Origin: a virus
IMG/VR virus record: IMGVR_UViG_2881214049_000001
DNA length: 64,000 nt
Direction: 5' to 3' (one strand)
In this document: positions 6,074-38,364 of the stretch, one piece after another
Layout: each line of letters starts with the position of its first letter
Position numbering within the stretch: position 1 is the first letter of the stretch
Made by a program: the position numbers and the translations under genes
Notes under the pieces: model-generated
The model's input: only the letters and a program-made list of their open reading frames with translations
The model's database searches: none
Told to the model about the DNA's origin: nothing

Positions 6074-6153
6074 AGACCAGTCTCCGTATTTACACAACGA
6101 TTACGTTGTGTATTGTACAATATATTAAAGCAAGTTTTATATTGTACAAAGTT

Positions 6154-6805: not shown

Positions 6806-8680
6806 TTATGCAGCCAGTAACTGTTCTGCTAGGCTAAAATCTAAACCGGTTGGTAGTACTGCTGTGGTGAATGGAATATATTCAATACTGCGGGTCGGTT
6901 TAACAAATAGCCATAAGTTCATGCGGCCAGCATCAATGTCTTCTGGTGTGTTGTTTGAGTCGTCACAAACGACTTTAAAGTCATATACGCCTCGACGTGC
7001 CTTGATGCCATTCATGTATGACGTAACCATGGCACTTGCGATAGCACGTGATGACTCGTCGTTTAATTCAAACAAGAAGTTTTCTAGTGCATCGCGTACG
7101 GCCGGTTCTATGGTGATTAACATCATACGAACGTTGATTCTATCGAGTGCACTTGGCATTGAGCTCAGGGTTTTTTGACCCCAGATCAAGATGCCTTTAC
7201 CTGCTGCAAAGCGCAGCGGATTAATACCAGCGGCGTATAGGCGATCCATTTCGCCTTTATCGTAGCGACGGCGTACATCGAGTACTTTGATCACACCACG
7301 GTTAAGGCCAGCTGCTGGGTACCAAGCTTCTTGGTTCATTGCAGTGCGTGATACCGCAAGTGCCGCATAAGCTTCAGGTGAAACAAAGACAGCACGATTG
7401 TTGAACTTGTCGAATATCTTAACGTGTGAGCTGTAAATTGCGCCAAATGAGCTGTTTGCATTTAATACAAGGTTACGATAATCAACCACTTCATTCAGGT
7501 AGTTGCTGCTTGCTTCAGCGCTGTAAGGCGTTGACAGAAAAGCGAAACAGTCCATACGTTTTTCACATAATGCAAGTAATGCTTTTTGATAACTTGGTAC
7601 CGCATAGCCGCCGTCCATAAACAGCTTGATTGGGTAAGTATCAGAGTTTTCAAACTCTTTTAGCGCTTGCATCATGTGGCCCGCCATGACTGCGCCACCT
7701 AAATCACCACCTGCAAAACCAATCGCGTTAAGCACGTGATCAGCCGGCTCTCCTACATAACTTGGGTTTGCGAAACCACGAATGTAGTTAGATTGCTCAA
7801 GTACGTTATCCAAAAAGATATTCTTGTTGAATCCATCTACCGCATCTTCACGTAACGCACAGGTAAATGATTCAACTGGGTTGGCGCTATCATCTAGATA
7901 GACTTCTAGTACGAATGTATTTGGCGTGGTGGCCACTGGTGAGAATAATGACATCACAATGTCACCTTGACCAGCATCGGTAAACGTTACGTACTCTTCG
8001 TCAGCTAATGCTTGTGCAGAGGTTGCCAATCGGATCTTGCCGCTCTCTTCACTTTTGACATAGTAACCGCGATCGCCAGAGATGCCGGTTGGTAGTCTGT
8101 CATCTTCCGCTTGCTTTATCACGGCTAAACGCACCACTGAGCCCGTAGACCAAGCCTGCGTAACTGCTAGGCTGCTATCAAGTACTTCAGCATCAGCTTC
8201 ATCAGTAACTGTATTAAACGCAACTTTTTCTGCTGTACGATAGTTGTGTACTTTTACTGACAGGCGGTTACCCCATGTGCCTTGATCTGCTGCTGTCAGG
8301 ATGAATGCTTGTGGTGAAGCAGCTTTGATATCTAAGAAATCTTCGAAGCCATCTGCAATTGGCTTAGACTCTGTTTCAGAACCCATTTCGCCAATCGCGG
8401 TTGCTGCGAACTTTGCACCATCACCAAGTACACGACGAATGTACAATTTGTCTGCGCCGCCAAGATAAGTCAGTGCAGAGTAGTGTGCGTTGTCAGCACC
8501 AATTTTAACCTTACCATCAACCGTGTAACGGTTTAAAAAAGTGTTTTCACTGGTACATAGTTGCGGTTCTAGAGAACCTCTTTCAGCTTGTGGTAATAAG
8601 ATTGCGGCGTACATGCCGGCTTCTGAACCTACACGCTGAGATAAATTTAATTCTTTAAGAATGACTTGTGCAGATGACAT
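6806..8680 (-). CDS. Contractile tail sheath protein (gp18-like)
   Basis: WYPAAGLNRG, GINPLRF, GILIWGQKTL, DRINVRMMLITIE, FELND, GVYDFKVVCDDSNNTPEDID, VKPTRSIEYI. Confidence 0.95.
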   Translation of the reverse strand: MSSAQVILKELNLSQRVGSEAGMYAAILLPQAERGSLEPQLCTSENTFLNRYTVDGKVKIGADNAHYSALTYLGGADKLYIRRVLGDGAKFAATAIGEMGSETESKPIADGFEDFLDIKAASPQAFILTAADQGTWGNRLSVKVHNYRTAEKVAFNTVTDEADAEVLDSSLAVTQAWSTGSVVRLAVIKQAEDDRLPTGISGDRGYYVKSEESGKIRLATSAQALADEEYVTFTDAGQGDIVMSLFSPVATTPNTFVLEVYLDDSANPVESFTCALREDAVDGFNKNIFLDNVLEQSNYIRGFANPSYVGEPADHVLNAIGFAGGDLGGAVMAGHMMQALKEFENSDTYPIKLFMDGGYAVPSYQKALLALCEKRMDCFAFLSTPYSAEASSNYLNEVVDYRNLVLNANSSFGAIYSSHVKIFDKFNNRAVFVSPEAYAALAVSRTAMNQEAWYPAAGLNRGVIKVLDVRRRYDKGEMDRLYAAGINPLRFAAGKGILIWGQKTLSSMPSALDRINVRMMLITIEPAVRDALENFLFELNDESSRAIASAMVTSYMNGIKARRGVYDFKVVCDDSNNTPEDIDAGRMNLWLFVKPTRSIEYIPFTTAVLPTGLDFSLAEQLLAA

Positions 8681-19627: not shown

Positions 19628-20887
19628 TTATTTTTTAATTTCAGACTCGGGAATACCAGACTTAATTAGGTGGAGCATAATAAGGTTGGTATTAAATGGC
19701 CCTGTTGGCTGAATAGCAATATACCTTCGATACAGCTTCTCTTGCGTTTCAGGGTCTTTTTCACCATACACGTGCACATTTACAGGTAACCCAGATGAAA
19801 TGACGTCAGCTGAGGTGTAAGCAACCATATCTAGCTCGTGCTTAAACCTAAAGCGTGGCGTGTTCAGCTTTGAAGGGAACAGGATTGCATAGCGAGAGCC
19901 TGCTTTTTCAATGCTTGCAACGCCAATATCGCGCATTTCAATCCGCGCCTGTTGTTGACGTAGATTAATAATGGCGTTCATATCACGGTCGTTACGCCAC
20001 GCATCGTATTGTTTACCAGGTGCATTAACGTCTTTTTCTCGCACCACAAAGCGTTTTAGTGCGATGGCACCTTGCTTGGTCGCATCTGGAGAGGGCGTAA
20101 TAGAGCTTTGCGGGCCAGACGATGTTGATCCCAAAGTTTGTGTATATGGAATGCCATTTTCTTGTGCATATTTCTCATAAGCAGCTTGGTGGGCTGCTGA
20201 ACGAGTATTACTCTCGTTAGAAATACCATACATACAGAAAATTGGATTTCGGCTACCATCCGCATCTGGTTCTCTCAATGGTTGACCATCTGATTGGTCT
20301 ACAGGGCGCTGTACCACAAACCAACTTTGCGTTGGCGGATCACGGTGCTCGTCACCCTCTAGCCAAATAGCTAAAAATAATCCATGTTCGGTAGATGATG
20401 CGCGCCACGAAACTGGATGTGCTTTTAGACGACCTTTGACGACTTTAGTGTCGAAAAATAGACCATCACCAGTGTTAGCACGGTGTTCAACACCTGCTTC
20501 TGTATAGGTATAGTCATAGTCTGGACCTAGGTTACCTGAAGTCACACCTCGTGCGTCTTGGATCACTTGGCCATTTGAAAAATCACACTGTAGTTGCGGT
20601 GTGACATGCGCCTCAATTGTTTGATAAGAAAACTCTGAGCCACTGACGGTTTTTGTAGCCATTTTTAGTGCGATAAGTTCACTATCAAACATGTTTTGTG
20701 AATCACCGCGAGGAACAGCAACAAAACTGTAGCCACCTTGCGCATCAAACTTTTCTTTTGCGTTTGGAAATTGATATTTAATTTCCCAACCAACGGTATT
20801 GAGCCACTCTGCGATTTCAAACAAAACGAAACGCAGGTCGCTGTAACCATACTTAACATTACTTTGTACAAGGGTATTTAAAGCCAT
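19628..20887 (-). CDS. Paralog family member (pair 3, second gene), probable virion/tail appendage protein
   Basis: Shared core SWFVVQRPVD...PIFCMYGI...FVVREKDV...ELDMVAYTSADVIS. Confidence 0.75.
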   Translation of the reverse strand: MALNTLVQSNVKYGYSDLRFVLFEIAEWLNTVGWEIKYQFPNAKEKFDAQGGYSFVAVPRGDSQNMFDSELIALKMATKTVSGSEFSYQTIEAHVTPQLQCDFSNGQVIQDARGVTSGNLGPDYDYTYTEAGVEHRANTGDGLFFDTKVVKGRLKAHPVSWRASSTEHGLFLAIWLEGDEHRDPPTQSWFVVQRPVDQSDGQPLREPDADGSRNPIFCMYGISNESNTRSAAHQAAYEKYAQENGIPYTQTLGSTSSGPQSSITPSPDATKQGAIALKRFVVREKDVNAPGKQYDAWRNDRDMNAIINLRQQQARIEMRDIGVASIEKAGSRYAILFPSKLNTPRFRFKHELDMVAYTSADVISSGLPVNVHVYGEKDPETQEKLYRRYIAIQPTGPFNTNLIMLHLIKSGIPESEIKK

Positions 20888-20904
20888 CCTCGTCCTCTCC
20901 TAAA

Positions 20905-22878
20905 TTAGTTTTGTTGTTTGCTGTTAAGGTTGCCTAAGCGACCGCCATACCAACGCATTAAAACACGCATACCAGTATTAAACTTACCTGTTGCAGGCAA
21001 GCCCTTGTACAGACGCGATGTTTCTTCCCATACACCGTTTCCTTGAATACATGACTCTCTATCTACGTGTGCTTCGTTTGGTATAGAGCATACTCCTTCA
21101 TCGTACATGCTAAATTCTGATAGGGCGCCGTTAGAAATAACATCAGCTGAGGTATAACCAATAAGGTCGGCTTCTTCTAAATACAGGTAGCGCTGTGTTG
21201 TTAGACCTGAAGGTACCGTGATCACGTATTCATAATCTTCCGATACAGCAACTTGCTCGTAGGTATTGATGATGGCATTTGAATCCGGGCTATCATCGCC
21301 TGCTGTTTGTTCTTCAGAAGGGCGATGCACGTCAGACTCTCGTACAATAAAGTAATTACTGGTGCTAACACGCTCATGATAAACACCATAAATGCAGAAC
21401 AATGGGCAAAAGCTCTTTGATTGGTCAACTAACGGTGTGCCGGTGTCTTTATCTACCAAGCGTTGTGTTGCAAACCAGCTAAAACGGTGACCATCATTTG
21501 TTTCATATTGGTCTACTGCTTGGTCCCACGTTGCCAGCACAATACCATGATCGCTCACTGTGAGTGCATAAGACATCGGAACGTTACGAGCGCCTTCTTT
21601 AGGGTCCATGGCCTCACCTTCTACATCGAAGGACTGATTGGTAACTGGCACTAAGTCATATTTTAGGTTATCGTAAAACTCAAGCCCCTTGTTTTTAGCA
21701 ACGTCAGGTGAACCTAGTACAACGCTCGGATCCTGCGGTGCATATTCTGTCAACTGTGGTGTCTTATTGAGTGCAGCAGAGGTATCTACGTCCCACTTCG
21801 CCCTGTAATTTGGCTTTGTTGAAGTACCGATGTTGATACTAATGATTTTATGGTAGGTAAACTCAGAGTAAAGGCTGAGTGGGAATTCAATTTCCAACTC
21901 TTGCTGAAGGCCAAACTCATCTCGTTTGGAATTTTCAATCGCTAAATTGAGTAAACTGGGAGGAACCTCACCTTCCACTTTAATGGTTGTGATAGAATCG
22001 CCATCAAAGTCTGTCAATGTTTTGCCTACAGGTGCGCGGAAATGTATTGTAAATTCTCGGCGCTCATAGACAGGATCTTCAAAACCCGCAGCACGATCAC
22101 CTGACGACTTAATATGAGGGTTCGTTCCCCCAGTACCGAATGTTGGATACGATGCGCCTAAATCCACTTCTTCTGGGTTCATTAACTCGAACCACTCGAC
22201 GTTTAAGTTATAAAGAATGTGGTTATTTTCATCAAAGGCACCACGAGGGAGCATGTTACGGCTGCCAGGAACCTTGAAAACACTGTCGGCTGCATGTGAT
22301 TTATTGATACAGTTCCACTCTAAGTTACCATATGGATCAATATCTTGAGTTTCTTTTATTTTGGTATGATAAATCGCACGGTTAATAAAGCCATAACGGT
22401 TTGACTGTGGTACAGCGCCATTACCATCATGTACGCGATTACCAATAAAGCCTAAGGTACCTCGGGTTTGGATATTAGAAATATTGCTCTCATCATACGA
22501 TGTATTTGGCGGAATATAAGGAATGGCTGGAGCTTTATCTTTGTCCATATCAATTTGCAGTGGTGTCGTCACATTGATATGACCCATGCCGTGGCCAATT
22601 TCTGAACGTGTGTCAAAGCGCACTACCCAAGGTTGAGGATTTGACTCATCTTCTGCACAGGCATCGACATGTTTGCTTGCTTGCACAATGATCACATCAT
22701 TGATTGGATTATCTGGGTTTTGATAGTCAAGCTCTGAAGTATCCTTTGGATACACAATATCGAATGCTTTTACTTGGTTGCTATTTTCCCGTGTTAGGTC
22801 TTGTACAATAGATAAGAACATTTCCCGGGGTGTGGCGAACCCTCCGCGTGTTACGGAATAAGGTGAAAATTCTGACAT
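20905..22878 (-). CDS. Paralog family member (pair 3, first gene; 657 aa with a large insertion)
   Basis: FSWFATQRLVD...PLFCIYGV...FIVRESDV...EADLIGYTSADVIS; N-terminus FSPYSVTRGG. Confidence 0.75.
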   Translation of the reverse strand: MSEFSPYSVTRGGFATPREMFLSIVQDLTRENSNQVKAFDIVYPKDTSELDYQNPDNPINDVIIVQASKHVDACAEDESNPQPWVVRFDTRSEIGHGMGHINVTTPLQIDMDKDKAPAIPYIPPNTSYDESNISNIQTRGTLGFIGNRVHDGNGAVPQSNRYGFINRAIYHTKIKETQDIDPYGNLEWNCINKSHAADSVFKVPGSRNMLPRGAFDENNHILYNLNVEWFELMNPEEVDLGASYPTFGTGGTNPHIKSSGDRAAGFEDPVYERREFTIHFRAPVGKTLTDFDGDSITTIKVEGEVPPSLLNLAIENSKRDEFGLQQELEIEFPLSLYSEFTYHKIISINIGTSTKPNYRAKWDVDTSAALNKTPQLTEYAPQDPSVVLGSPDVAKNKGLEFYDNLKYDLVPVTNQSFDVEGEAMDPKEGARNVPMSYALTVSDHGIVLATWDQAVDQYETNDGHRFSWFATQRLVDKDTGTPLVDQSKSFCPLFCIYGVYHERVSTSNYFIVRESDVHRPSEEQTAGDDSPDSNAIINTYEQVAVSEDYEYVITVPSGLTTQRYLYLEEADLIGYTSADVISNGALSEFSMYDEGVCSIPNEAHVDRESCIQGNGVWEETSRLYKGLPATGKFNTGMRVLMRWYGGRLGNLNSKQQN

Positions 22879-23012
22879 GACTCATTTTCCTCGCTGTCTC
22901 TAGTCTCAGCACCATTACAGTTAGCTCTGTAACTGTTGTACAGTGTGCTTGTATTGTACAACAGTTTTGAACAAAATGGCGAATGCTCAATAACGATTAT
23001 TAAGCTGTTTAA

Positions 23013-24344
23013 TTACTGATTTTCCCCGGTGTCTGGGGCGTCACAATCTATTTCAGTTAACATTAATACAGTCATATTGGTATTATGGCTGCTGTTTGGT
23101 GTTAATGCGGTATATTTGCGATAACGTTTGGCGCTTGTATCACCTTCGTTATACACATTAACTTTAATAGTAAGCTGTGGTGCTATTACGTCGGCTGATG
23201 TGTATGCCACCATATCCATGTCATGCTGATAGCGAAAACGCTTTGTATTCAGTCTATTAGGATAAAGGATAACGTATTTGGCACCAGCTAAGGTAAATGC
23301 GCCTGCGTTTGTTGCTTCTGAACTCGCTCGATATTCAACTCGAGTTTGCTGCTGCACTTCGTTTACCCAAGCATTTGAGTCTCGGGTGTTCAGCGTCGCA
23401 TCTTCGGCGTATGTTGGCTTTAATACGTCTTTTTCTCGTACCGTAAATTTTTGAATAATGCCCGGTAGCGAGCTTAAAGATACAGGTTGCGTTCTACCTA
23501 AAGGTACCTGTCCATCCATGTCCATGGTGTAGATTTCACCATCTTGTGTGGTACCAAAATTATCATAAATGTATTTATTATAGATTCCGTATAAGCAAAA
23601 AATGGGGTTACGAGAGCCCAGCGGATCTGCATCTTGCAAGTTGTTGCCAGACTTTTGATCCACAGGCCTTTGTAGCACCATCCAACTTTGTGTTGGCGAG
23701 TCTCCAGCTGATTGGTCGTCTGATTCTACCCAGTACGCAAAAGAAAACCCTCTATCTGTGATGGATAGTCGGTATGACATTGGGTAAGCTCGAAGCATCC
23801 CCTCAAATTCGCGCACGTCAATAAAGTAGAGCGTTGATACGTTAAAGCCGTGGCTTGGCTGCGGCGGCTTTGTCGTCGCGTTAGCTGCCGATGATTTGTT
23901 TAGTGGGATCACATCACGGTAATTGTGCGGAACAGTGTGTGGTGATTCACCAACATGACCGCAAGTGTAGCCGCGCAAATTCGGAATGGCTTCCTCAAAG
24001 TCCTCACCCAGTTGTAGTGGCGTCGCCATTTGAATTTCACAAGTGTATTGTGTATCTGCGTATACCCTGATGCGATAAGGTTCTTCATCGTTGAGTGAAT
24101 TTGTCGCAGTCGTTGACTCAAGTACAGCCATAATAGGCTGAGGATTATTTGGGTCGAACTCGATAGGGGTGCGGGTGATCCGTTTATAGCCGTTTTCGAC
24201 CATCACTTGTAACCAGTTGCTGACAAGCTCACGGACATCAGTGAAGCCATCACGGGTAACGGTCGTGACGAAATGCTCTCCACCATTGGCCAAGCTCGCT
24301 GGTAAATTCGAAGTGTAAATATCACCATTTATTGTAAGTGGCAT
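23013..24344 (-). CDS. Paralog family member (pair 2, second gene)
   Basis: SWMVLQRPVD...PIFCLYGI...FTVREKDV...DMDMVAYTSADVI. Confidence 0.75.
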   Translation of the reverse strand: MPLTINGDIYTSNLPASLANGGEHFVTTVTRDGFTDVRELVSNWLQVMVENGYKRITRTPIEFDPNNPQPIMAVLESTTATNSLNDEEPYRIRVYADTQYTCEIQMATPLQLGEDFEEAIPNLRGYTCGHVGESPHTVPHNYRDVIPLNKSSAANATTKPPQPSHGFNVSTLYFIDVREFEGMLRAYPMSYRLSITDRGFSFAYWVESDDQSAGDSPTQSWMVLQRPVDQKSGNNLQDADPLGSRNPIFCLYGIYNKYIYDNFGTTQDGEIYTMDMDGQVPLGRTQPVSLSSLPGIIQKFTVREKDVLKPTYAEDATLNTRDSNAWVNEVQQQTRVEYRASSEATNAGAFTLAGAKYVILYPNRLNTKRFRYQHDMDMVAYTSADVIAPQLTIKVNVYNEGDTSAKRYRKYTALTPNSSHNTNMTVLMLTEIDCDAPDTGENQ

Positions 24345-24358
24345 CGATAACTCTCCTG

Positions 24359-25732
24359 TTAGTAAGTGCCAGCGCTAGAGCCAGGCACAACGTCGGTCTG
24401 ACCCACGTTGTCTTGTGTTGTGATAGCCGTGTTGTACCAGCGCATGAGAATGCGTACGCCGGTGTTATATTTGCCCGTGGAGCGCAACCCTTTGTATCGC
24501 TTTTTACTGCCATCATCGTACATGGACAACTCAGCAATACCGTCTTGAGAAATAATATCGGCTGAGCAGTAACTGATCATGTCCATCTCTTCAAGATACA
24601 AATAACGTTGGGTGTTGATCCCACTTGGTACGGATACGACATATTCGTAGTTTTCTGTGACAGAGATTTGTTCGTTAGGATTGATAAGTGCAACACTGTC
24701 TTGGGTGTTTTTGGTTGCATCTAAGTCCTCAGATGGACGGTGCACATCTGATTCTCGAACCACAAAATAACGTTTAATATTTTGAGTTTGGTTTTGAATA
24801 CCATACAAACACGCTAGTGGGCAGTGTGAATCGGCTTGATTTACAAGTGGTGTGCCGCTTTCTTTGTCTACGAGGCGTTGGCAAACAAACCAGCTGTGGC
24901 GGTGGCCTTTTGCATCATATTGATCTGTCGCTTCTTCCCAAATAGCCAATGCAATACCATGCTCACTAACGGACAGGGCATATGACATTGGAATATTAGG
25001 CGTGCCTGCAATGTTTACCTGAGCTGTGTCAGGGTACTTAGTTTCAAATTCTGTTTTAATATTGTAAAGCGGGCGACGACAGAAAAAGCCTTTGTCTTCA
25101 ATCTCTAGGCGCAGCTTATCATTTGGGTCACACCAAGCAACTTGCTTGTCTACAACGGGAACACGTTCGCCCAAGAAGCCCAAAGTGCCAACGACAATGG
25201 GTTCGTCACCTGTACCGCGGTTCGGTGGCGTATAGTCGTACATTTGCCAGTCTCCACTTGCAGGTTTGTACAACTGTAGTGGGGTAGAAATATTGATATG
25301 CAAGTTACCAACTTCAGGCGCATCGTTGTCGCGGTCTTCACGGCGATTGTTATGTGCTGGGGTGCATTGTTTGCCAACACCAGTATCGAAACGAATAATC
25401 CAAGGCTGAGGGATGATCTCAGTACCTTGTGCCTTAAAAGTTGGATCCGCGCCAGCTAAAGGATCGACAAACCCCGTCGCTTGTACAACAAATACGTCGC
25501 TATCAATTGACTCCGGATCACCCAAATCTGGGTTATCTGCGGGATATAAAAGTTCAAACGCATTCTGCGCTTCATCGGCAGCAGTTGGATGCTCATAATA
25601 ATTCACTAAATCTCGGACTACGGCTGTGATCAGGCTTTTTAACGTCGTGTATCCACCACGCTCGACTGAATAAGGCGCAAACTCCGCTTTTTTGACAAAA
25701 CCCATAAATTTCTCCGGATAGTCTGGGGCCAA
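24359..25732 (-). CDS. Paralog family member (pair 2, first gene)
   Basis: HSWFVCQRLVD...PLACLYGI...FVVRESDV...EMDMISYCSADII; FAPYSVERGG near the N-terminus. Confidence 0.75.
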   Translation of the reverse strand: MAPDYPEKFMGFVKKAEFAPYSVERGGYTTLKSLITAVVRDLVNYYEHPTAADEAQNAFELLYPADNPDLGDPESIDSDVFVVQATGFVDPLAGADPTFKAQGTEIIPQPWIIRFDTGVGKQCTPAHNNRREDRDNDAPEVGNLHINISTPLQLYKPASGDWQMYDYTPPNRGTGDEPIVVGTLGFLGERVPVVDKQVAWCDPNDKLRLEIEDKGFFCRRPLYNIKTEFETKYPDTAQVNIAGTPNIPMSYALSVSEHGIALAIWEEATDQYDAKGHRHSWFVCQRLVDKESGTPLVNQADSHCPLACLYGIQNQTQNIKRYFVVRESDVHRPSEDLDATKNTQDSVALINPNEQISVTENYEYVVSVPSGINTQRYLYLEEMDMISYCSADIISQDGIAELSMYDDGSKKRYKGLRSTGKYNTGVRILMRWYNTAITTQDNVGQTDVVPGSSAGTY

Positions 25733-25869
25733 TGCAAACTGGTCTCATTAATGCCTACTTTGCCTCTGCAAAGTGCGGTTCTAACTATTGTACAATTTAA
25801 AACGCTTCGATCGTACAATAATTAAGGTGTTTCACTACTGTGTTTCACAAAATCTCAATATGTAGCGCA

Positions 25870-26787
25870 TTATGTAATGCGAAACATAACGCTGACGCCG
25901 TTATTATCGGCTAATGTACTTACCATGGTGTGATAGTTCCTGCGCTCACCAAATACCTCAAGAGGTAGAGTGGCATTGGCGCTGACTAAATCCGTATTGG
26001 CAAAGCCAATCATATCGAATACACCATCATAGCTAAATCGTTCAGTAGAGAAATTATTAGGAAATTGAATAAAGTAATCCCTACTTTCTGAAATTTCTTT
26101 TAATTTCACTGTATGCATTGCGCTGTAACGATTGTATTGATCTGAAATCGCTGTTTGTGCAGGCGCGGGGACTGGAATGTCGCGCTCACGTACGAGCATC
26201 TGTTCAACGCTTGACTCATAGCGGTTGAATATACCGCTTAATGCAATCACCGGGTTATGCTCAGTTGGAATAGCAATGCCATTTTGCCATTCAACAGGCT
26301 TTTGTACGACTAGCCAAGATAGTTGACGGTTTAAACTGTTAACGACCGCATGCTCCCAAATTGCAAAAGCAAAGCCATGAGAATCGGCTGTGAAAAGCAC
26401 AGAAAAAGGCCGTGAATACTTAGCATCACCTTTAAGTCCTTCCCTTTGATGCCAATAGCCAACAGCATAACTTGTGTCTTTTGTATTAAGGCTACCTAGG
26501 TTTCTATTATATAGAGAGCCGTCAGGGTCTAACTGCATGGGCGTCACAATATTCATGCGCAGCGCTATGTCGTTAATCAGCTCAAAGCGCACGACCCAAG
26601 GCTGGTCTTTTGCATTGGCATCAAGTGTGACACGCGGCATCAAGTTAAGTACGCGGCCATTTTCCATTTTTTTATAAGTGAAATACATACTTGTTGATTC
26701 TATCAAGAAATCAAGTACTTGTGCCAAGTCCACTAAGCCATGTTTAAACTGATGGTACATATATTTTACCAGCCCTTTATATCGCAA
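25870..26787 (-). CDS. Paralog family member (pair 1, second gene; minimal core)
   Basis: SWLVVQKPVE...PVIALSGI...MLVRERDI...FDMIGFANTDLVS. Confidence 0.7.
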   Translation of the reverse strand: MRYKGLVKYMYHQFKHGLVDLAQVLDFLIESTSMYFTYKKMENGRVLNLMPRVTLDANAKDQPWVVRFELINDIALRMNIVTPMQLDPDGSLYNRNLGSLNTKDTSYAVGYWHQREGLKGDAKYSRPFSVLFTADSHGFAFAIWEHAVVNSLNRQLSWLVVQKPVEWQNGIAIPTEHNPVIALSGIFNRYESSVEQMLVRERDIPVPAPAQTAISDQYNRYSAMHTVKLKEISESRDYFIQFPNNFSTERFSYDGVFDMIGFANTDLVSANATLPLEVFGERRNYHTMVSTLADNNGVSVMFRIT

Positions 26788-26811
26788 TACGTTTCATGGT
26801 TTGTCATGCTG

Positions 26812-27894
26812 CTATCCTGTGGCCAATAACCAGTTGTAACTTTCATCATGCACCGAGCGAACATGCTCTTTTATCTCTGGTCCATTGATATAAATCAGAA
26901 TAATGGTGCCGGTCGAATCTTGGGCGTGATTCAATACTGTTTTAAAGCGGCGACTTTGCTTCTCGTAAAAGACCTGAGAAAATTCAACGTTTTGTAAACT
27001 TCCAAATAAGCGAGCCTCACTGTAGGCAATCAGATCGAGGACATGTTTGTAGCGATAACGGCGCGTATTCAAATTGTGGGGAAAAAATACTTTTGCGGTA
27101 TTATCATCAGTAAAATAGTTAACTTCAGCGTCTTGATGAGGCAAAATCGCATTGTCCATGTGCTTAAATCGCCAAGCCGGTTGGCTTTTAGTCGGTACGT
27201 ACACGTCGGCCTCCCGTACTACAAACTTGTTTCTTACATGACCAAAACCATTTTTTATTTCATATGCTGCGAATACTGGCGACATTTCACTTACCAGCGG
27301 CTCGCCCGATTCTGGATCAACAGGGCGTTGTACACAAAGCCAACTAAACCAGCTTGCATTATTACTGTTTATTTGCGTTGCATCATCAAAAGTTTCTTCG
27401 TATGAAAAAAATACAAAGCCGCGCTCGGTTAACGTAAGTATATACCCCATTGGATACGCTGGAGCTGCTTTTCTCAGGTACGTTCTATCAACAAATGGGA
27501 TCCCTGAGTTACCAATATCAGACCCGATGACACCAACATGATCCCAACCCACTAACCGTTCAAACTGACCCTGCACCTCTGTGAGCATTGCGGTGTCGGG
27601 AAGCTGCAACTTTGGCGCCACATATAATCTGGCTTCATTCCAACTAACTTTAAACATAACGCGCCAACTATACTGGTTGCCAGCCAGCATGGCGTTACCC
27701 TCAGGCAGTACTTCAAGTAAGCACGAGAACGGGGCGTCATCTTCAAGTAATTTGGGGTGAATGATTTGATCATTATCCAGCTGCTGTATCGAGACTGACT
27801 GAAATTTTCCAGACTCGACCATGTCAATCACCACATCTTTTAACATATTGACGTGTGATTTGTAGCCACTGCGGTTAAACGACATACCTGACAT
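26812..27894 (-). CDS. Paralog family member (pair 1, first gene)
   Basis: FSWLCVQRPVD...PVFAAYEI...FVVREADV...LDLIAYSEA. Confidence 0.72.
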   Translation of the reverse strand: MSGMSFNRSGYKSHVNMLKDVVIDMVESGKFQSVSIQQLDNDQIIHPKLLEDDAPFSCLLEVLPEGNAMLAGNQYSWRVMFKVSWNEARLYVAPKLQLPDTAMLTEVQGQFERLVGWDHVGVIGSDIGNSGIPFVDRTYLRKAAPAYPMGYILTLTERGFVFFSYEETFDDATQINSNNASWFSWLCVQRPVDPESGEPLVSEMSPVFAAYEIKNGFGHVRNKFVVREADVYVPTKSQPAWRFKHMDNAILPHQDAEVNYFTDDNTAKVFFPHNLNTRRYRYKHVLDLIAYSEARLFGSLQNVEFSQVFYEKQSRRFKTVLNHAQDSTGTIILIYINGPEIKEHVRSVHDESYNWLLATG

Positions 27895-35951: not shown

Positions 35952-36569
35952 TCACTGATGTGATGAAGTTGCCAGCATAATTAATGCAGCGACTCTTTGA
36001 CTGTTTTCAAGCGTTGAGTTTGGCGCTTTTTTATATGCTAAGTGAGCAAATGCACTTTTGGTTTCTGCTTGTAAAAACCAGCAGGCATTACCCAACTCAG
36101 TTTCGACGATCAAAGCTAGTCTGTGATGATATTCACATAAATAACACGCCTCTTGGTGTGCATAGGTGAATGCTATCAGCAAATCATTTTTTTCTCGGCT
36201 TTGCTCTTCGAACGATTGTTTCAGTTTTACATGCCTATTGAGTAATTCAATACGCTGACTTTCACTTGCGGTTAACGCTTGCTCGTAGCTTGCCAGAGGC
36301 AGTGTACCCAGAATGTCATGTAAAACACTGTAGTCTCTTGATCTTGGAGACCAGTTTAGTCCGAGCTTATCCAGCGCCGTAGACAAAGCGTCCTTTGCTA
36401 GTCGAACTTCCTCTGCTAACAGCTCATTGGTAAAGCGCAGACGTTGCTGCTCTTTAACTATATCATCTCGGTTTGTACCGAGCTCGTTTTGGTGAGATAT
36501 GTGTTTTTGTGTCATCTTGCGCTTCCTTTTCGTTGAGCTAAATAAACATCTCAACGTTCTCAAACGCAA
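35952..36569 (-). CDS. Hypothetical coiled-coil protein
   Basis: 205-aa ORF; true start probably at the downstream MTQKH. Confidence 0.55.
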   Translation of the reverse strand: MRLRTLRCLFSSTKRKRKMTQKHISHQNELGTNRDDIVKEQQRLRFTNELLAEEVRLAKDALSTALDKLGLNWSPRSRDYSVLHDILGTLPLASYEQALTASESQRIELLNRHVKLKQSFEEQSREKNDLLIAFTYAHQEACYLCEYHHRLALIVETELGNACWFLQAETKSAFAHLAYKKAPNSTLENSQRVAALIMLATSSHQ

Positions 36570-36612: not shown

Positions 36613-37026
36613 CTAACTGGTTACCGAAGTGATGGCAAGCTGTCTTAAACGATATTGTTCAATCACTTTAGCTCTCGCTTCGCTCCAAGGTGCACAACAA
36701 CCTTTACCAAATTGCATCGCAGACCCATCATTTTTATTATTGTACAATGAGTAGAGGTTACAGCGATAGAGATTTACGCCCTCTTGTAGCGTTTCATCTA
36801 AAATTAGGTGGGTACATTGATTGGTTTCGGTGTTCATTTCACCTCTACCACACAGGTTCGTTCGGCAACACGCCCCACTTCTGACACATTTGAAATGATA
36901 AACAGGTTCACCCTCGTGATCTGAAACTACCAACAACTGCTCTTGTTCCATCCTTTTTAGCTCTGTATCACTTGGTCGCCAGAACTCAGGGTCAATGGTC
37001 ACAATCCCTTGATCACGACTATTCAC
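36613..37026 (-). CDS. YkgJ-like cysteine-cluster (Zn/Fe-chelating) protein
   Basis: FKCVRSGACC...C..L....YRCNLY cysteine pattern. Confidence 0.55.
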   Translation of the reverse strand: MNSRDQGIVTIDPEFWRPSDTELKRMEQEQLLVVSDHEGEPVYHFKCVRSGACCRTNLCGRGEMNTETNQCTHLILDETLQEGVNLYRCNLYSLYNNKNDGSAMQFGKGCCAPWSEARAKVIEQYRLRQLAITSVTS

Positions 37027-37273
37027 AGGTGGCTACTTTGTGATCGTCATGGGCAATCGTTGCAACACTTTCTCGATTAATCAGCATGGGCTCTTTATTA
37101 TGCGAGGAAAGTAGCACACTACCTTTATCAAACCGACGGACTTTGCCATTAAGACAGATACCATTGACTAAATACACACGCACTTTCGCCCCTTTTAAAA
37201 GGAACTGTATTAAGTGCTCTCCCCACAGGTCAAAAGGCTCACCATTGGGAAACACCAACTCTTTATTAGACAT
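37019..37273 (-). CDS. hfq: Hfq-like Sm-fold RNA chaperone, divergent
   Basis: VRVYLVNGICLNGKVRRFDKGSVLL...MLINRESVATI aligns with E. coli [25 protein letters not shown]...QMVYKHAISTV. Confidence 0.85.
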   Translation of the reverse strand: MSNKELVFPNGEPFDLWGEHLIQFLLKGAKVRVYLVNGICLNGKVRRFDKGSVLLSSHNKEPMLINRESVATIAHDDHKVATCE

Positions 37274-37361
37274 CGACTTAACTCCAGTTTACTGATTACT
37301 ACTAGTGCCACTTCGCTTTATATTTGCGACACAAAAATGAACTTGTTCACGCTGACAAACG

Positions 37362-37715
37362 TCAATTACGTATGTTTCTCGTTCTTACAAATTTATCAAA
37401 GCCTCTAAATCCAAACGAGGCTCCTACAGCTAGGCCGAACATATAGCGGTAAAATTCGGGGGTCTGCTCTAATTGAATAAAGCCTTGATGAGCGTATGGC
37501 GCAAGTTGTGGAATAAAACACATAATAAAAGGAACACTTAACAAAACAGTAAACCATTCATCTTTCCAACTGGTGGCCGCACCATTAGCCATCGCTTCTT
37601 CCCAACTTATTACGCGCTGCGCTTTAGCGTGTGCAGCTTGTTTAACAATATCCTGTTTGCCTTTAAATATTTCGAAAATCCAACCGCCTGCGGCTGTAAG
37701 AGCTTGAAACCACAT
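37362..37715 (-). CDS. Holin (3-TM, GTA-holin-like)
   Basis: SWKDEWFTVLLSVPFIMCFIP...LEQTPEFYRYMFGLAVGASFGFR signature. Confidence 0.72.
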   Translation of the reverse strand: MWFQALTAAGGWIFEIFKGKQDIVKQAAHAKAQRVISWEEAMANGAATSWKDEWFTVLLSVPFIMCFIPQLAPYAHQGFIQLEQTPEFYRYMFGLAVGASFGFRGFDKFVRTRNIRN

Positions 37716-37788: not shown

Positions 37789-38271
37789 CTACTGGAACAT
37801 GATGCGGCCACTTGACGCATGCAGACAATCAATAATTTGTTGTACAATAGTATAGGCAAGGCGACCATCATACTTGCCTAAATAGTTTTCTCTAAGTCTT
37901 TTCATACATAGCGCAATAATACAAGTGTCGTCCGCAATGGGATGAATATGAATAATCTCCACAATAAATTGTTCTATAATTCGCTCGAGTGCCAGCGCAC
38001 TGATCCTTTCAGGCATCGCATATAGCAAATGCACCAGCTCGTTATTCAAAGAGCTGAGCTTTTCTTTGTCTCTTACACCAGGTCGAGATTTGTTTTTTAT
38101 TTTAGCTATGGATTTTTTTATTTCATATTCAGCCAGTTGTGCAGCCCTTAACTGCGAATTTGGCTCCGATTCATCTATACCTAACGACTCACAAAATTTA
38201 CGTACTCGCTGTGCAGCATCCTCACACTCAACATCTAAATACACCAATACCGCATCAGTTGTACATGTCAT
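37789..38271 (-). CDS. Hypothetical protein
   Basis: 160-aa ORF downstream of the 28-bp palindrome. Confidence 0.55.
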   Translation of the reverse strand: MTCTTDAVLVYLDVECEDAAQRVRKFCESLGIDESEPNSQLRAAQLAEYEIKKSIAKIKNKSRPGVRDKEKLSSLNNELVHLLYAMPERISALALERIIEQFIVEIIHIHPIADDTCIIALCMKRLRENYLGKYDGRLAYTIVQQIIDCLHASSGRIMFQ

Positions 38272-38336: not shown

Positions 38337-38364
38337 ACAATTTATATTGTACAATATAAATTGT
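38337..38364. promoter_or_regulatory. Perfect 28-bp palindrome centred on TTGTACAA between divergent genes
   Basis: ACAATTTATATTGT|ACAATATAAATTGT is its own reverse complement. Confidence 0.85.

Follow-up and report, generated by a model that had tools for sequence, protein, structure and literature searches.

A diverged Hfq-family protein without the canonical proximal and lateral RNA-site residues, encoded beside a conserved cysteine-rich partner on a Pseudoalteromonas phage-plasmid

Hfq is the central hub of small-RNA (sRNA) regulation in Gram-negative bacteria. Extra copies of Hfq on mobile elements are, to our knowledge, rare and almost unstudied. Here we describe such a copy, an Hfq-like gene coding for a protein of 84 amino acids (aa; P0001) at positions 37019..37273 on the minus strand of a 64,000-nucleotide stretch of viral DNA (IMG/VR record IMGVR_UViG_2881214049_000001), which we refer to as the window. 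Its product has a predicted Sm fold and a canonical Sm1 motif, with N-R-E in place of the Sm2 Y-K-H. The Hfq label was already present in RefSeq; what is new here is that the carrier element is identified, that orthologues are found and that a conserved partner module is recognized.

In canonical Hfq, His57 recognizes the RNA 3' end. Uracil is stacked by Phe42 and specified by Gln8, and the lateral pocket consists of Asn13, Arg16, Arg17, Ser38 and Phe39 (PMC5379935). The distal purine (R) site involves residues 25, 28, 29, 30, 60/61 and 61/62, and in Gram-positive Hfq a longer β3-β4 loop removes the distal A-site (PMC3505971). Annealing is driven by the rim arginines (PMC3753642). Among extrachromosomal copies, the toxicity of Hfq3 from the Bacillus anthracis plasmid pXO1 requires distal-face residues and does not require proximal residues or the cell's own Hfq proteins, and the chromosomal B. 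anthracis Hfq1 has a dominant-negative effect on Escherichia coli Hfq (PMC5348863). The cyanobacterial 'Hfq-related' proteins are reportedly inactive in riboregulation (PMC4152361). Finally, phage T4 makes use of a host Hfq hexamer under its neck protein gp14, where the hexamer forms a transient second genome gate, with contacts at the distal-face and rim residues K31, Q33, T49, S65 and R19 of host Hfq (PMC12929587).

The window gene is an intact open reading frame (ORF) of 84 codons that runs on the minus strand from an ATG at 37273 to a stop codon at 37019-37021. A Shine-Dalgarno sequence, GGAG (37282..37285, minus strand), can be read 8 nucleotides (nt) before this ATG, and the start is secure because the open frame reaches only five codons further upstream. 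The protein matches the Pfam Hfq profile PF17209 over residues 27-75 with 37.2 bits (E 2.2e-9; cut-off 27). It lies marginally under the cut-off of PF21979 (Hfq_1, 'Hfq-related'; 26.5 bits versus 27) and well under those of the NCBIfam Hfq equivalogs TIGR02383 (36.4 versus 61.7 bits) and NF001602 (29.7 versus 95 bits) and of the cyanobacterial-type model NF047718 (26.4 versus 52 bits). An AlphaFold2 (AF2) monomer model built with ten sequences has a mean predicted local distance difference test (pLDDT) score of 81, with a core above 90, and shows a helix at residues 16-27 followed by five strands. When this model was compared with the PDB using Foldseek, the top matches were all Hfq, with target template modelling (TM) scores of 0.80-0.89 and root-mean-square deviations of 1-2 Å; Thermotoga 4Y91 came first and Aquifex 5SZD second, followed by Pseudomonas, E. 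coli, Bacillus and others. The profile score, the Sm fold and the Hfq-only list of top structures together indicate that the similarity is no chance resemblance. Thus, the gene encodes a genuine, intact and highly diverged member of the Hfq/Sm family; a first-pass annotation of the window had read it as a phage Hfq that has lost part of its RNA-binding residues. The RefSeq product name 'RNA chaperone Hfq' (WP_125251914.1) is, as regards function, probably an over-annotation.

The residues were assigned by HMMER alignment to Aquifex 5szd, Thermotoga 4y91 and B. subtilis 3ahu (residues 12-75, including the helix), by BLASTP to host-type Hfq, by MAFFT and by a profile alignment of 54 Hfq-like domains, all of which gave a concordant register. 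Residue numbers equal those of E. coli Hfq plus 9 up to β3 and plus 11 after the β3-β4 loop, which is 2 residues longer than that of host Hfq. The Sm1 motif is represented by Y34, N37, G38, I39, G43, F48 and D49, and in E. coli numbering the unchanged positions are Y25, L26, N28, G29, I30, L32, G34, F39, D40 and T61. In the proximal pocket the substitutions are Q8W, D9G, F42G, Y55N, K56R and H57E (Trp17, Gly51 and Asn66-Arg67-Glu68 of the protein), so that none of the residues Gln8, Phe/Tyr42, Lys56 and His57 of the uridine pocket is present. The rim and lateral pocket have N13I, R16L, R17L, R19G and K47S, and at the lateral-pocket and rim positions, occupied here by Ile22, Leu25, Leu26, Gly28, Arg47 and Phe48, only the canonical Phe39 is retained. 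On the distal face S60A is the only change in the R-site core, while the A-site residues K31, Q33 and Q52 are altered (K31C and Q33N for the first two). The C-terminus has no acidic tail.

Every substitution listed in the first-pass annotation (Q8W, D9G, R16L, R17L, R19G, K31C, F42G, Y55N, K56R and H57E) is confirmed by these alignments, as is its set of kept residues (Y25, N28, G29, I30 and F39-D40, which correspond to Y34, N37, G38, I39, F48 and D49); the alignments add N13I in the lateral pocket, K47S on the rim, and Q33N and S60A on the distal face. One of its broader statements is only partly upheld. The distal face, which it described as kept, retains the purine-site core but has changes at K31, Q33 and S60 and a loop longer by 2 residues. 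The rim arginines R16, R17 and R19 are indeed replaced, but positive charge is not lost. Specifically, the Sm core contains 9 Lys/Arg residues with a net charge of +5 and an isoelectric point of 10.0, relative to 6 Lys/Arg and a net charge of +2 in the host Hfq core, and its basic residues interleave with the lost-arginine positions (Lys27, Lys30, Arg32) and adjoin Phe39 (Arg46, Arg47). Note that the kept residues also form the structural core of Sm1, so their retention alone does not demonstrate a working distal face; judged from its residues, this face would amount to no more than the R-site of a Gram-positive (R-L) type.

With Gln8 and Phe42 gone and His57 replaced by an acidic residue, the protein cannot, judged by its residues, use the canonical proximal pocket for uridines and RNA 3' ends. 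As the lateral pocket of Asn13, Arg16 and Arg17 is missing as well, a role as canonical sRNA-mRNA matchmaker is unlikely. This agrees with the first-pass prediction that the protein should not chaperone sRNA-mRNA pairing, as do the scores below the equivalog cut-offs (36.4 versus 61.7 bits for TIGR02383).

Searches for relatives show the protein to be a sequence orphan: when 1.84 billion representatives were searched exhaustively with phmmer, only 29 matches reached E ≤ 1e-3, the best at E 1.6e-8. Many of the 29 are two-domain (tandem) Hfq-like proteins, and a few short single-domain ones are, like the window protein, without Y-K-H. Among the 54 aligned domains there are 41 that lack Y-K-H, and these have an aromatic residue at position 25 in 40 of 41 cases and are near-constant at L26, G29, I/V30, L32 and T/S61, with positions 8, 16, 17, 19, 42, 47 and 55-57 varying freely. 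This pattern fits with retention of a distal R-site. The best distant relatives (P0002-P0015 and others) are tandem Hfq-like proteins of 145-196 aa, one of them (P0002) on a 322-kb contig, and in many of the tandem proteins Y-K-H is missing from one or both domains; a full-text literature search on tandem Hfq proteins returned essentially nothing.

Closer relatives are very few. Among 140 Pseudoalteromonas species genomes there is a single direct match, which is a near-identical element, and genome searches at family, genus and order level likewise recovered the gene only in the near-identical element. Two diverged orthologues were nevertheless found. A second Pseudoalteromonas genome (G333) contains a related element, with a sheath protein 69% identical to that of the window, in which a syntenic Hfq-like ORF of 83 aa scores 23.9 bits against PF17209 and is 38% identical to the window protein over 45 residues. 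The third orthologue, of 81 aa, is located on a 281-kb IMG/VR contig. Gln8, Phe42, Tyr55 and His57 are absent in all three, and the Sm2 position reads N-R-E, D-R-D and D-R-N, with an invariant Arg; a further relative, P0025, has N-R-D. This distribution indicates that the proximal pocket was lost before these elements diverged and that the gene was nonetheless retained, which argues against a decaying remnant.

In the phage collection, neither the locus (megablast) nor the protein (tblastn) had a match. No relatives emerged from IMG/VR pattern scans with P0001, P0002 and P0030, the last of which is encoded on a 130-kb contig. A word-indexed protein search with P0001 returned only the query itself, and a profile search contributed nothing beyond singletons on short contigs. 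One metagenome contig carrying P0025 (1.27 kb) has small overlapping phage-like ORFs and no recognizable homologue of the partner described below. A canonical Hfq query matched 7 of 50,697 phage records, most of which look, from their names and sizes, like (mislabelled) bacterial contigs, and so phage-borne canonical hfq seems to be very rare.

In all three diverged elements the Hfq-like gene is the first member of a conserved three-gene order, being followed by a gene for a cysteine-rich protein and then by a gene for a third protein of 179-205 aa. In the window the cysteine-rich partner (137 aa; 36613..37026, minus strand) begins with a GTG that overlaps the Hfq-like stop by 8 nt, and the corresponding junction is an 8-nt gap in G333 and a 17-nt overlap on the 281-kb contig. 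The partner is 40-43% identical between elements (orthologues at L016:1707-2084 in G333 and L020:3983-4366 on the 281-kb contig), and eight cysteines are invariant across the three orthologues in the pattern F-K-C-x-R-S-G-x-C-C ... C ... C ... C ... G-C-C-x-P-W. Searches of Pfam, NCBIfam and PHROG gave no match to this protein, and a word search found no homologues outside its own cluster. A resemblance to the YkgJ / CxxCxxCC family, suggested by an Atlas feature search (0.80), is only a lead. The third gene (35952..36515, minus strand) codes for 187 aa from the RefSeq start, with the ORF list extending it to a TTG at 36569, and its product is 37% identical between the window and G333. Retention of the Hfq-like gene together with this dedicated partner in three diverged elements points to an independent function.

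Upstream of the Hfq-like gene, the window encodes a membrane protein (37362..37715, minus strand; phrog_2524) whose phage relatives are annotated as DUF3154 or transmembrane (TM)-helix proteins and which is possibly a holin. It lies outside the conserved module, as other genes occupy that place in the orthologous loci. Specifically, upstream of the orthologous Hfq-like genes (L016:468-1450 and L020:2759-3743) there are a 150-aa protein and a 175-193-aa C-P-C-C protein, the former having, by eye only, the look of a secreted thermonuclease.

The carrier is a circular, approximately 128-kb, myovirus-type phage-plasmid of Pseudoalteromonas. A record 99.3% identical to it is the complete circular 128,275-bp plasmid NZ_CP072685.1 of the coral isolate Pseudoalteromonas sp. 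SCSIO 43201. The window encodes a tail sheath, several sheath-like paralogues and a helicase, and the plasmid encodes a head maturation protease and a major head protein, baseplate V, gp25/W and PAAR proteins, an N-acetylmuramidase, and homologues of ParA, SecB, HU and thioredoxin. The matches to head protease and major head protein, the tail and baseplate genes and ParA together identify a myovirus-type phage-plasmid; the terminase profiles PF03237 and PF17289 had no match on the element. The Hfq-like gene is located between the partition genes and the tail module, and its protein is identical in three independent records, the nucleotide difference among them being one synonymous change. The same plasmid also codes for a 273-aa ProQ/FinO-family protein (NZ_CP072685.1 12424-13245; PF04352, 46.7 bits, cut-off 27), so that the element carries homologues of two different RNA-chaperone families.

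For the function of the Hfq-like protein we favour a reading that, on residue content and gene context, we hold to have about an even chance of being correct. The protein would assemble into an Sm-type ring of its own and not into host Hfq, and this ring would bind nucleic acid, most likely RNA. Binding may occur through a residual distal purine site (Tyr34, Asn37, Gly38, Ile39, Leu41 and Thr72) and also through a relocated set of basic residues (Lys27, Lys30, Arg32, Arg46, Arg47, Lys50 and Arg67). Together with its co-translated cysteine-rich partner, the ring would act as an element-specific RNA-binding regulator or sequestrator, and it would not match-make terminator-tailed sRNAs. Sequestration of A-rich mRNAs, which was proposed in the first-pass annotation, is plausible by analogy with pXO1 Hfq3 (PMC5348863), although the distal face is only partly canonical and Gly29 is Asn in both other orthologues.

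Several observations weigh against this interpretation. The distal face departs in part from the canonical form (K31C, Q33N and S60A), and the Asn that both other orthologues carry at the Gly29 position makes a conserved purine pocket across the lineage doubtful. Arg46, Arg47 and Lys50 are not conserved in these two orthologues either, and their cores are near neutral, so that, taken together with Asn29, little weight can be placed on the particular 'distal face' of the window protein. The constancy of Sm1 among the domains lacking Y-K-H is partly an ascertainment effect, as distant homologues get detected through the Sm1 motif. Moreover, the window shows no enrichment of (ARN)4 motifs (80 relative to 65 +/- 10 expected), and the partner has no fold or family assignable by profile searches or by its poor AF2 model (pLDDT 49.6).

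The other mechanism raised in the first-pass annotation was that the protein enters mixed rings with host Hfq and, through its defective proximal and rim sites, switches off host sRNA regulation. Sm rings, including hetero-heptamers, are held together largely by β4-β5' backbone pairing, an arrangement that tolerates sequence divergence, and a host-type genome does contain a canonical hfq in the miaA-hfq-hflX context with which such mixing could occur. The action of Hfq3 through its distal face and the dominant-negative effect of Hfq1 on E. coli Hfq provide precedents for A-rich mRNA sequestration and for poisoning, respectively (PMC5348863). Nonetheless, the window protein shares only 35% identity with host-type Hfq over 43 residues, being nearer to the Hfq of Aquifex, Thermotoga and Bacillus, and it has replaced Gln8, Tyr55 and His57, residues tied to hexamer stability or organization. 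Specifically, in a study titled for conserved intersubunit residues, Ala at Gln8, Asp40 or Tyr55 lowers Hfq thermostability while the hexamer persists, and the title of a work cited there names His57 as important for hexamer organization (PMC9228748). The retention of a dedicated partner gene over three diverged elements also suggests a separate function, and the toxicity of pXO1 Hfq3 is independent of endogenous Hfq proteins. On these sequence comparisons we do not favour host-Hfq poisoning and regard it as improbable. A working sRNA chaperone that uses substitute residues to serve the element's own antisense or small RNAs, with Trp17 stacking, Arg67 taking the place of Lys56, and Lys27, Lys30, Arg32, Arg46 and Arg47 forming a new rim, is likewise a rather unlikely account. 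In its favour, the charge of Lys56 is preserved by Arg67, which all three orthologues and P0025 share, the position of Gln8 is aromatic in 4 of 7 single-domain relatives without Y-K-H (the window protein included), the core is very basic, and Aquifex Hfq has lysines at the positions aligned with Lys27 and Lys30. Yet the stacking Phe42 has become Gly, His57 has become Glu and the lateral-pocket Asn13 has become Ile, and neither Trp17 nor the additional basic residues are conserved in the other two orthologues.

A further alternative is that the ring no longer has RNA as its target and instead contacts protein or DNA, acting for example as an accessory in virion assembly or at the genome gate, or as a platform for its partner. 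The T4 gate is a precedent, and cyanobacterial Hfq, in which conserved RNA-site residues are likewise missing, is apparently outside riboregulation (PMC4152361). Consistent with this, each of the three canonical RNA sites has degenerated in the orthologues, the gene lies between partition genes and tail module adjoining a possible holin, and translational coupling to the partner suggests a complex. However, the residues that T4 contacts are not conserved (K31C, Q33N and R19G), no link to a neck protein was found, the highly basic core is what would be expected of a nucleic-acid binder, and the ProQ/FinO homologue on the same element points to control at the RNA level; we therefore give this alternative a small share of the probability. 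The same degradation of functional residues on all three RNA faces, and the orphan status of a protein whose next-best match has E 1.6e-8 among 1.84 billion representatives, could also be expected of a decaying and functionless remnant of a captured hfq gene. This is very improbable given the intact frame and good Shine-Dalgarno sequence, the confidently predicted Sm fold, the identity of the protein in three independent records with a single synonymous difference, and the persistence of intact orthologues at the same position despite a sheath-protein identity between elements of only 69%.

Beyond an autonomous RNA-binding ring of the kind favoured above, there is an outside chance that the Hfq-like ring, its perhaps metal-binding partner and the third protein constitute an undescribed phage-plasmid module that acts on RNA in a new way. 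Such a module could, for example, sense redox state or metals and switch the element post-transcriptionally between maintenance as a plasmid and lytic growth, or it could be a dedicated antagonist of host Hfq-dependent regulation. Whichever of these applies, the proximal and lateral RNA sites were lost long ago in this lineage and the gene was retained beside the same partner on phage-plasmids. Site loss combined with long retention beside a partner makes this a natural separation-of-function variant of Hfq, and as such it offers a way to learn how host RNA biology is controlled or exploited by phage-plasmids.

Additional features of the element were also observed. The first gene of the probable operon containing the Hfq-like gene (37789-38271, minus strand) has a weak match to phrog_1460 'tRNA amidotransferase' (E 8e-6) and a sub-threshold match to a YqeY-like domain (E 0.014). 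The palindromic octamer TTGTACAA occurs in 34 copies across the window relative to approximately 2 expected, a count reached by 0 of 100 shuffles; copies are found at 6113, 19471, 38347 and 41433, for example, and many appear intergenic by position. The copy at 38347 is located where the minus-strand block of genes that includes the Hfq-like gene probably starts, and there is no copy directly upstream of the Hfq-like gene itself. Besides the main sheath gene (6806-8680), six consecutive genes at 19628-27894 (minus strand) match the tail-sheath family phrog_12249. Finally, CheckV rates the near-identical IMG/VR record (127.6 kb) as 30% complete even though the matching plasmid is a closed 128-kb circle, an estimate that was probably misled by distant jumbo-phage relatives.

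When compared with known systems, the window protein shares with canonical Hfq (PF17209; closest structures Aquifex aeolicus 5SZD, Thermotoga maritima 4Y91 and B. subtilis 3AHU/3HSB) the Sm fold of five strands behind an N-terminal helix, the Sm1 sequence Y-L-V-N-G-I-x-L-x-G, F39-D40 and Thr61, at approximately 33-36% identity, and the length of its β3-β4 loop is nearer to the Gram-positive and deep-branching Hfq type. It differs from canonical Hfq in having N-R-E as Sm2, in the replacement of Gln8, Phe42, Asn13, Arg16, Arg17, Arg19 and Lys47, in a Cys at K31, in lacking the acidic C-terminal tail and in scoring under the NCBIfam equivalog cut-off. Its genomic setting also differs, as canonical hfq lies between miaA and hflX while this gene is located on a phage-plasmid beside a cysteine-rich partner. 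With the cyanobacterial 'Hfq-related' proteins (PF21979, NF047718; Synechocystis 3HFO) it has in common an Hfq fold in which the proximal RNA-site residues are not conserved, and language-model features from an Atlas search place it nearest to Hfq_1-type clusters, which is a lead only. In contrast to those proteins, it misses the PF21979 and NF047718 cut-offs (26.5 versus 27 and 26.4 versus 52 bits), its Sm1 is of the canonical type, and no 3HFO chain is present among its PDB sequence matches.

The remaining two comparisons concern mobile elements. Like the Hfq3 of B. anthracis pXO1, the window protein is an extra Hfq copy on an extrachromosomal element, and the only other plasmid match to it is a Bacillus cereus plasmid hfq at 37% identity. 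Hfq3 differs in having proximal-face residues that can be mutated (Q4 and K53) and in partly complementing an E. coli hfq deletion (PMC5348863), whereas the window protein has no such pocket, is borne by a Gram-negative bacterium and is accompanied by a conserved partner gene. At the T4 neck, the host Hfq hexamer serves the phage in a non-RNA role through a face that normally binds RNA (PMC12929587). However, T4 borrows host Hfq and encodes none of its own, while the Pseudoalteromonas phage-plasmid encodes an Hfq-family protein in which the contact residues K31, Q33 and R19 are not conserved.

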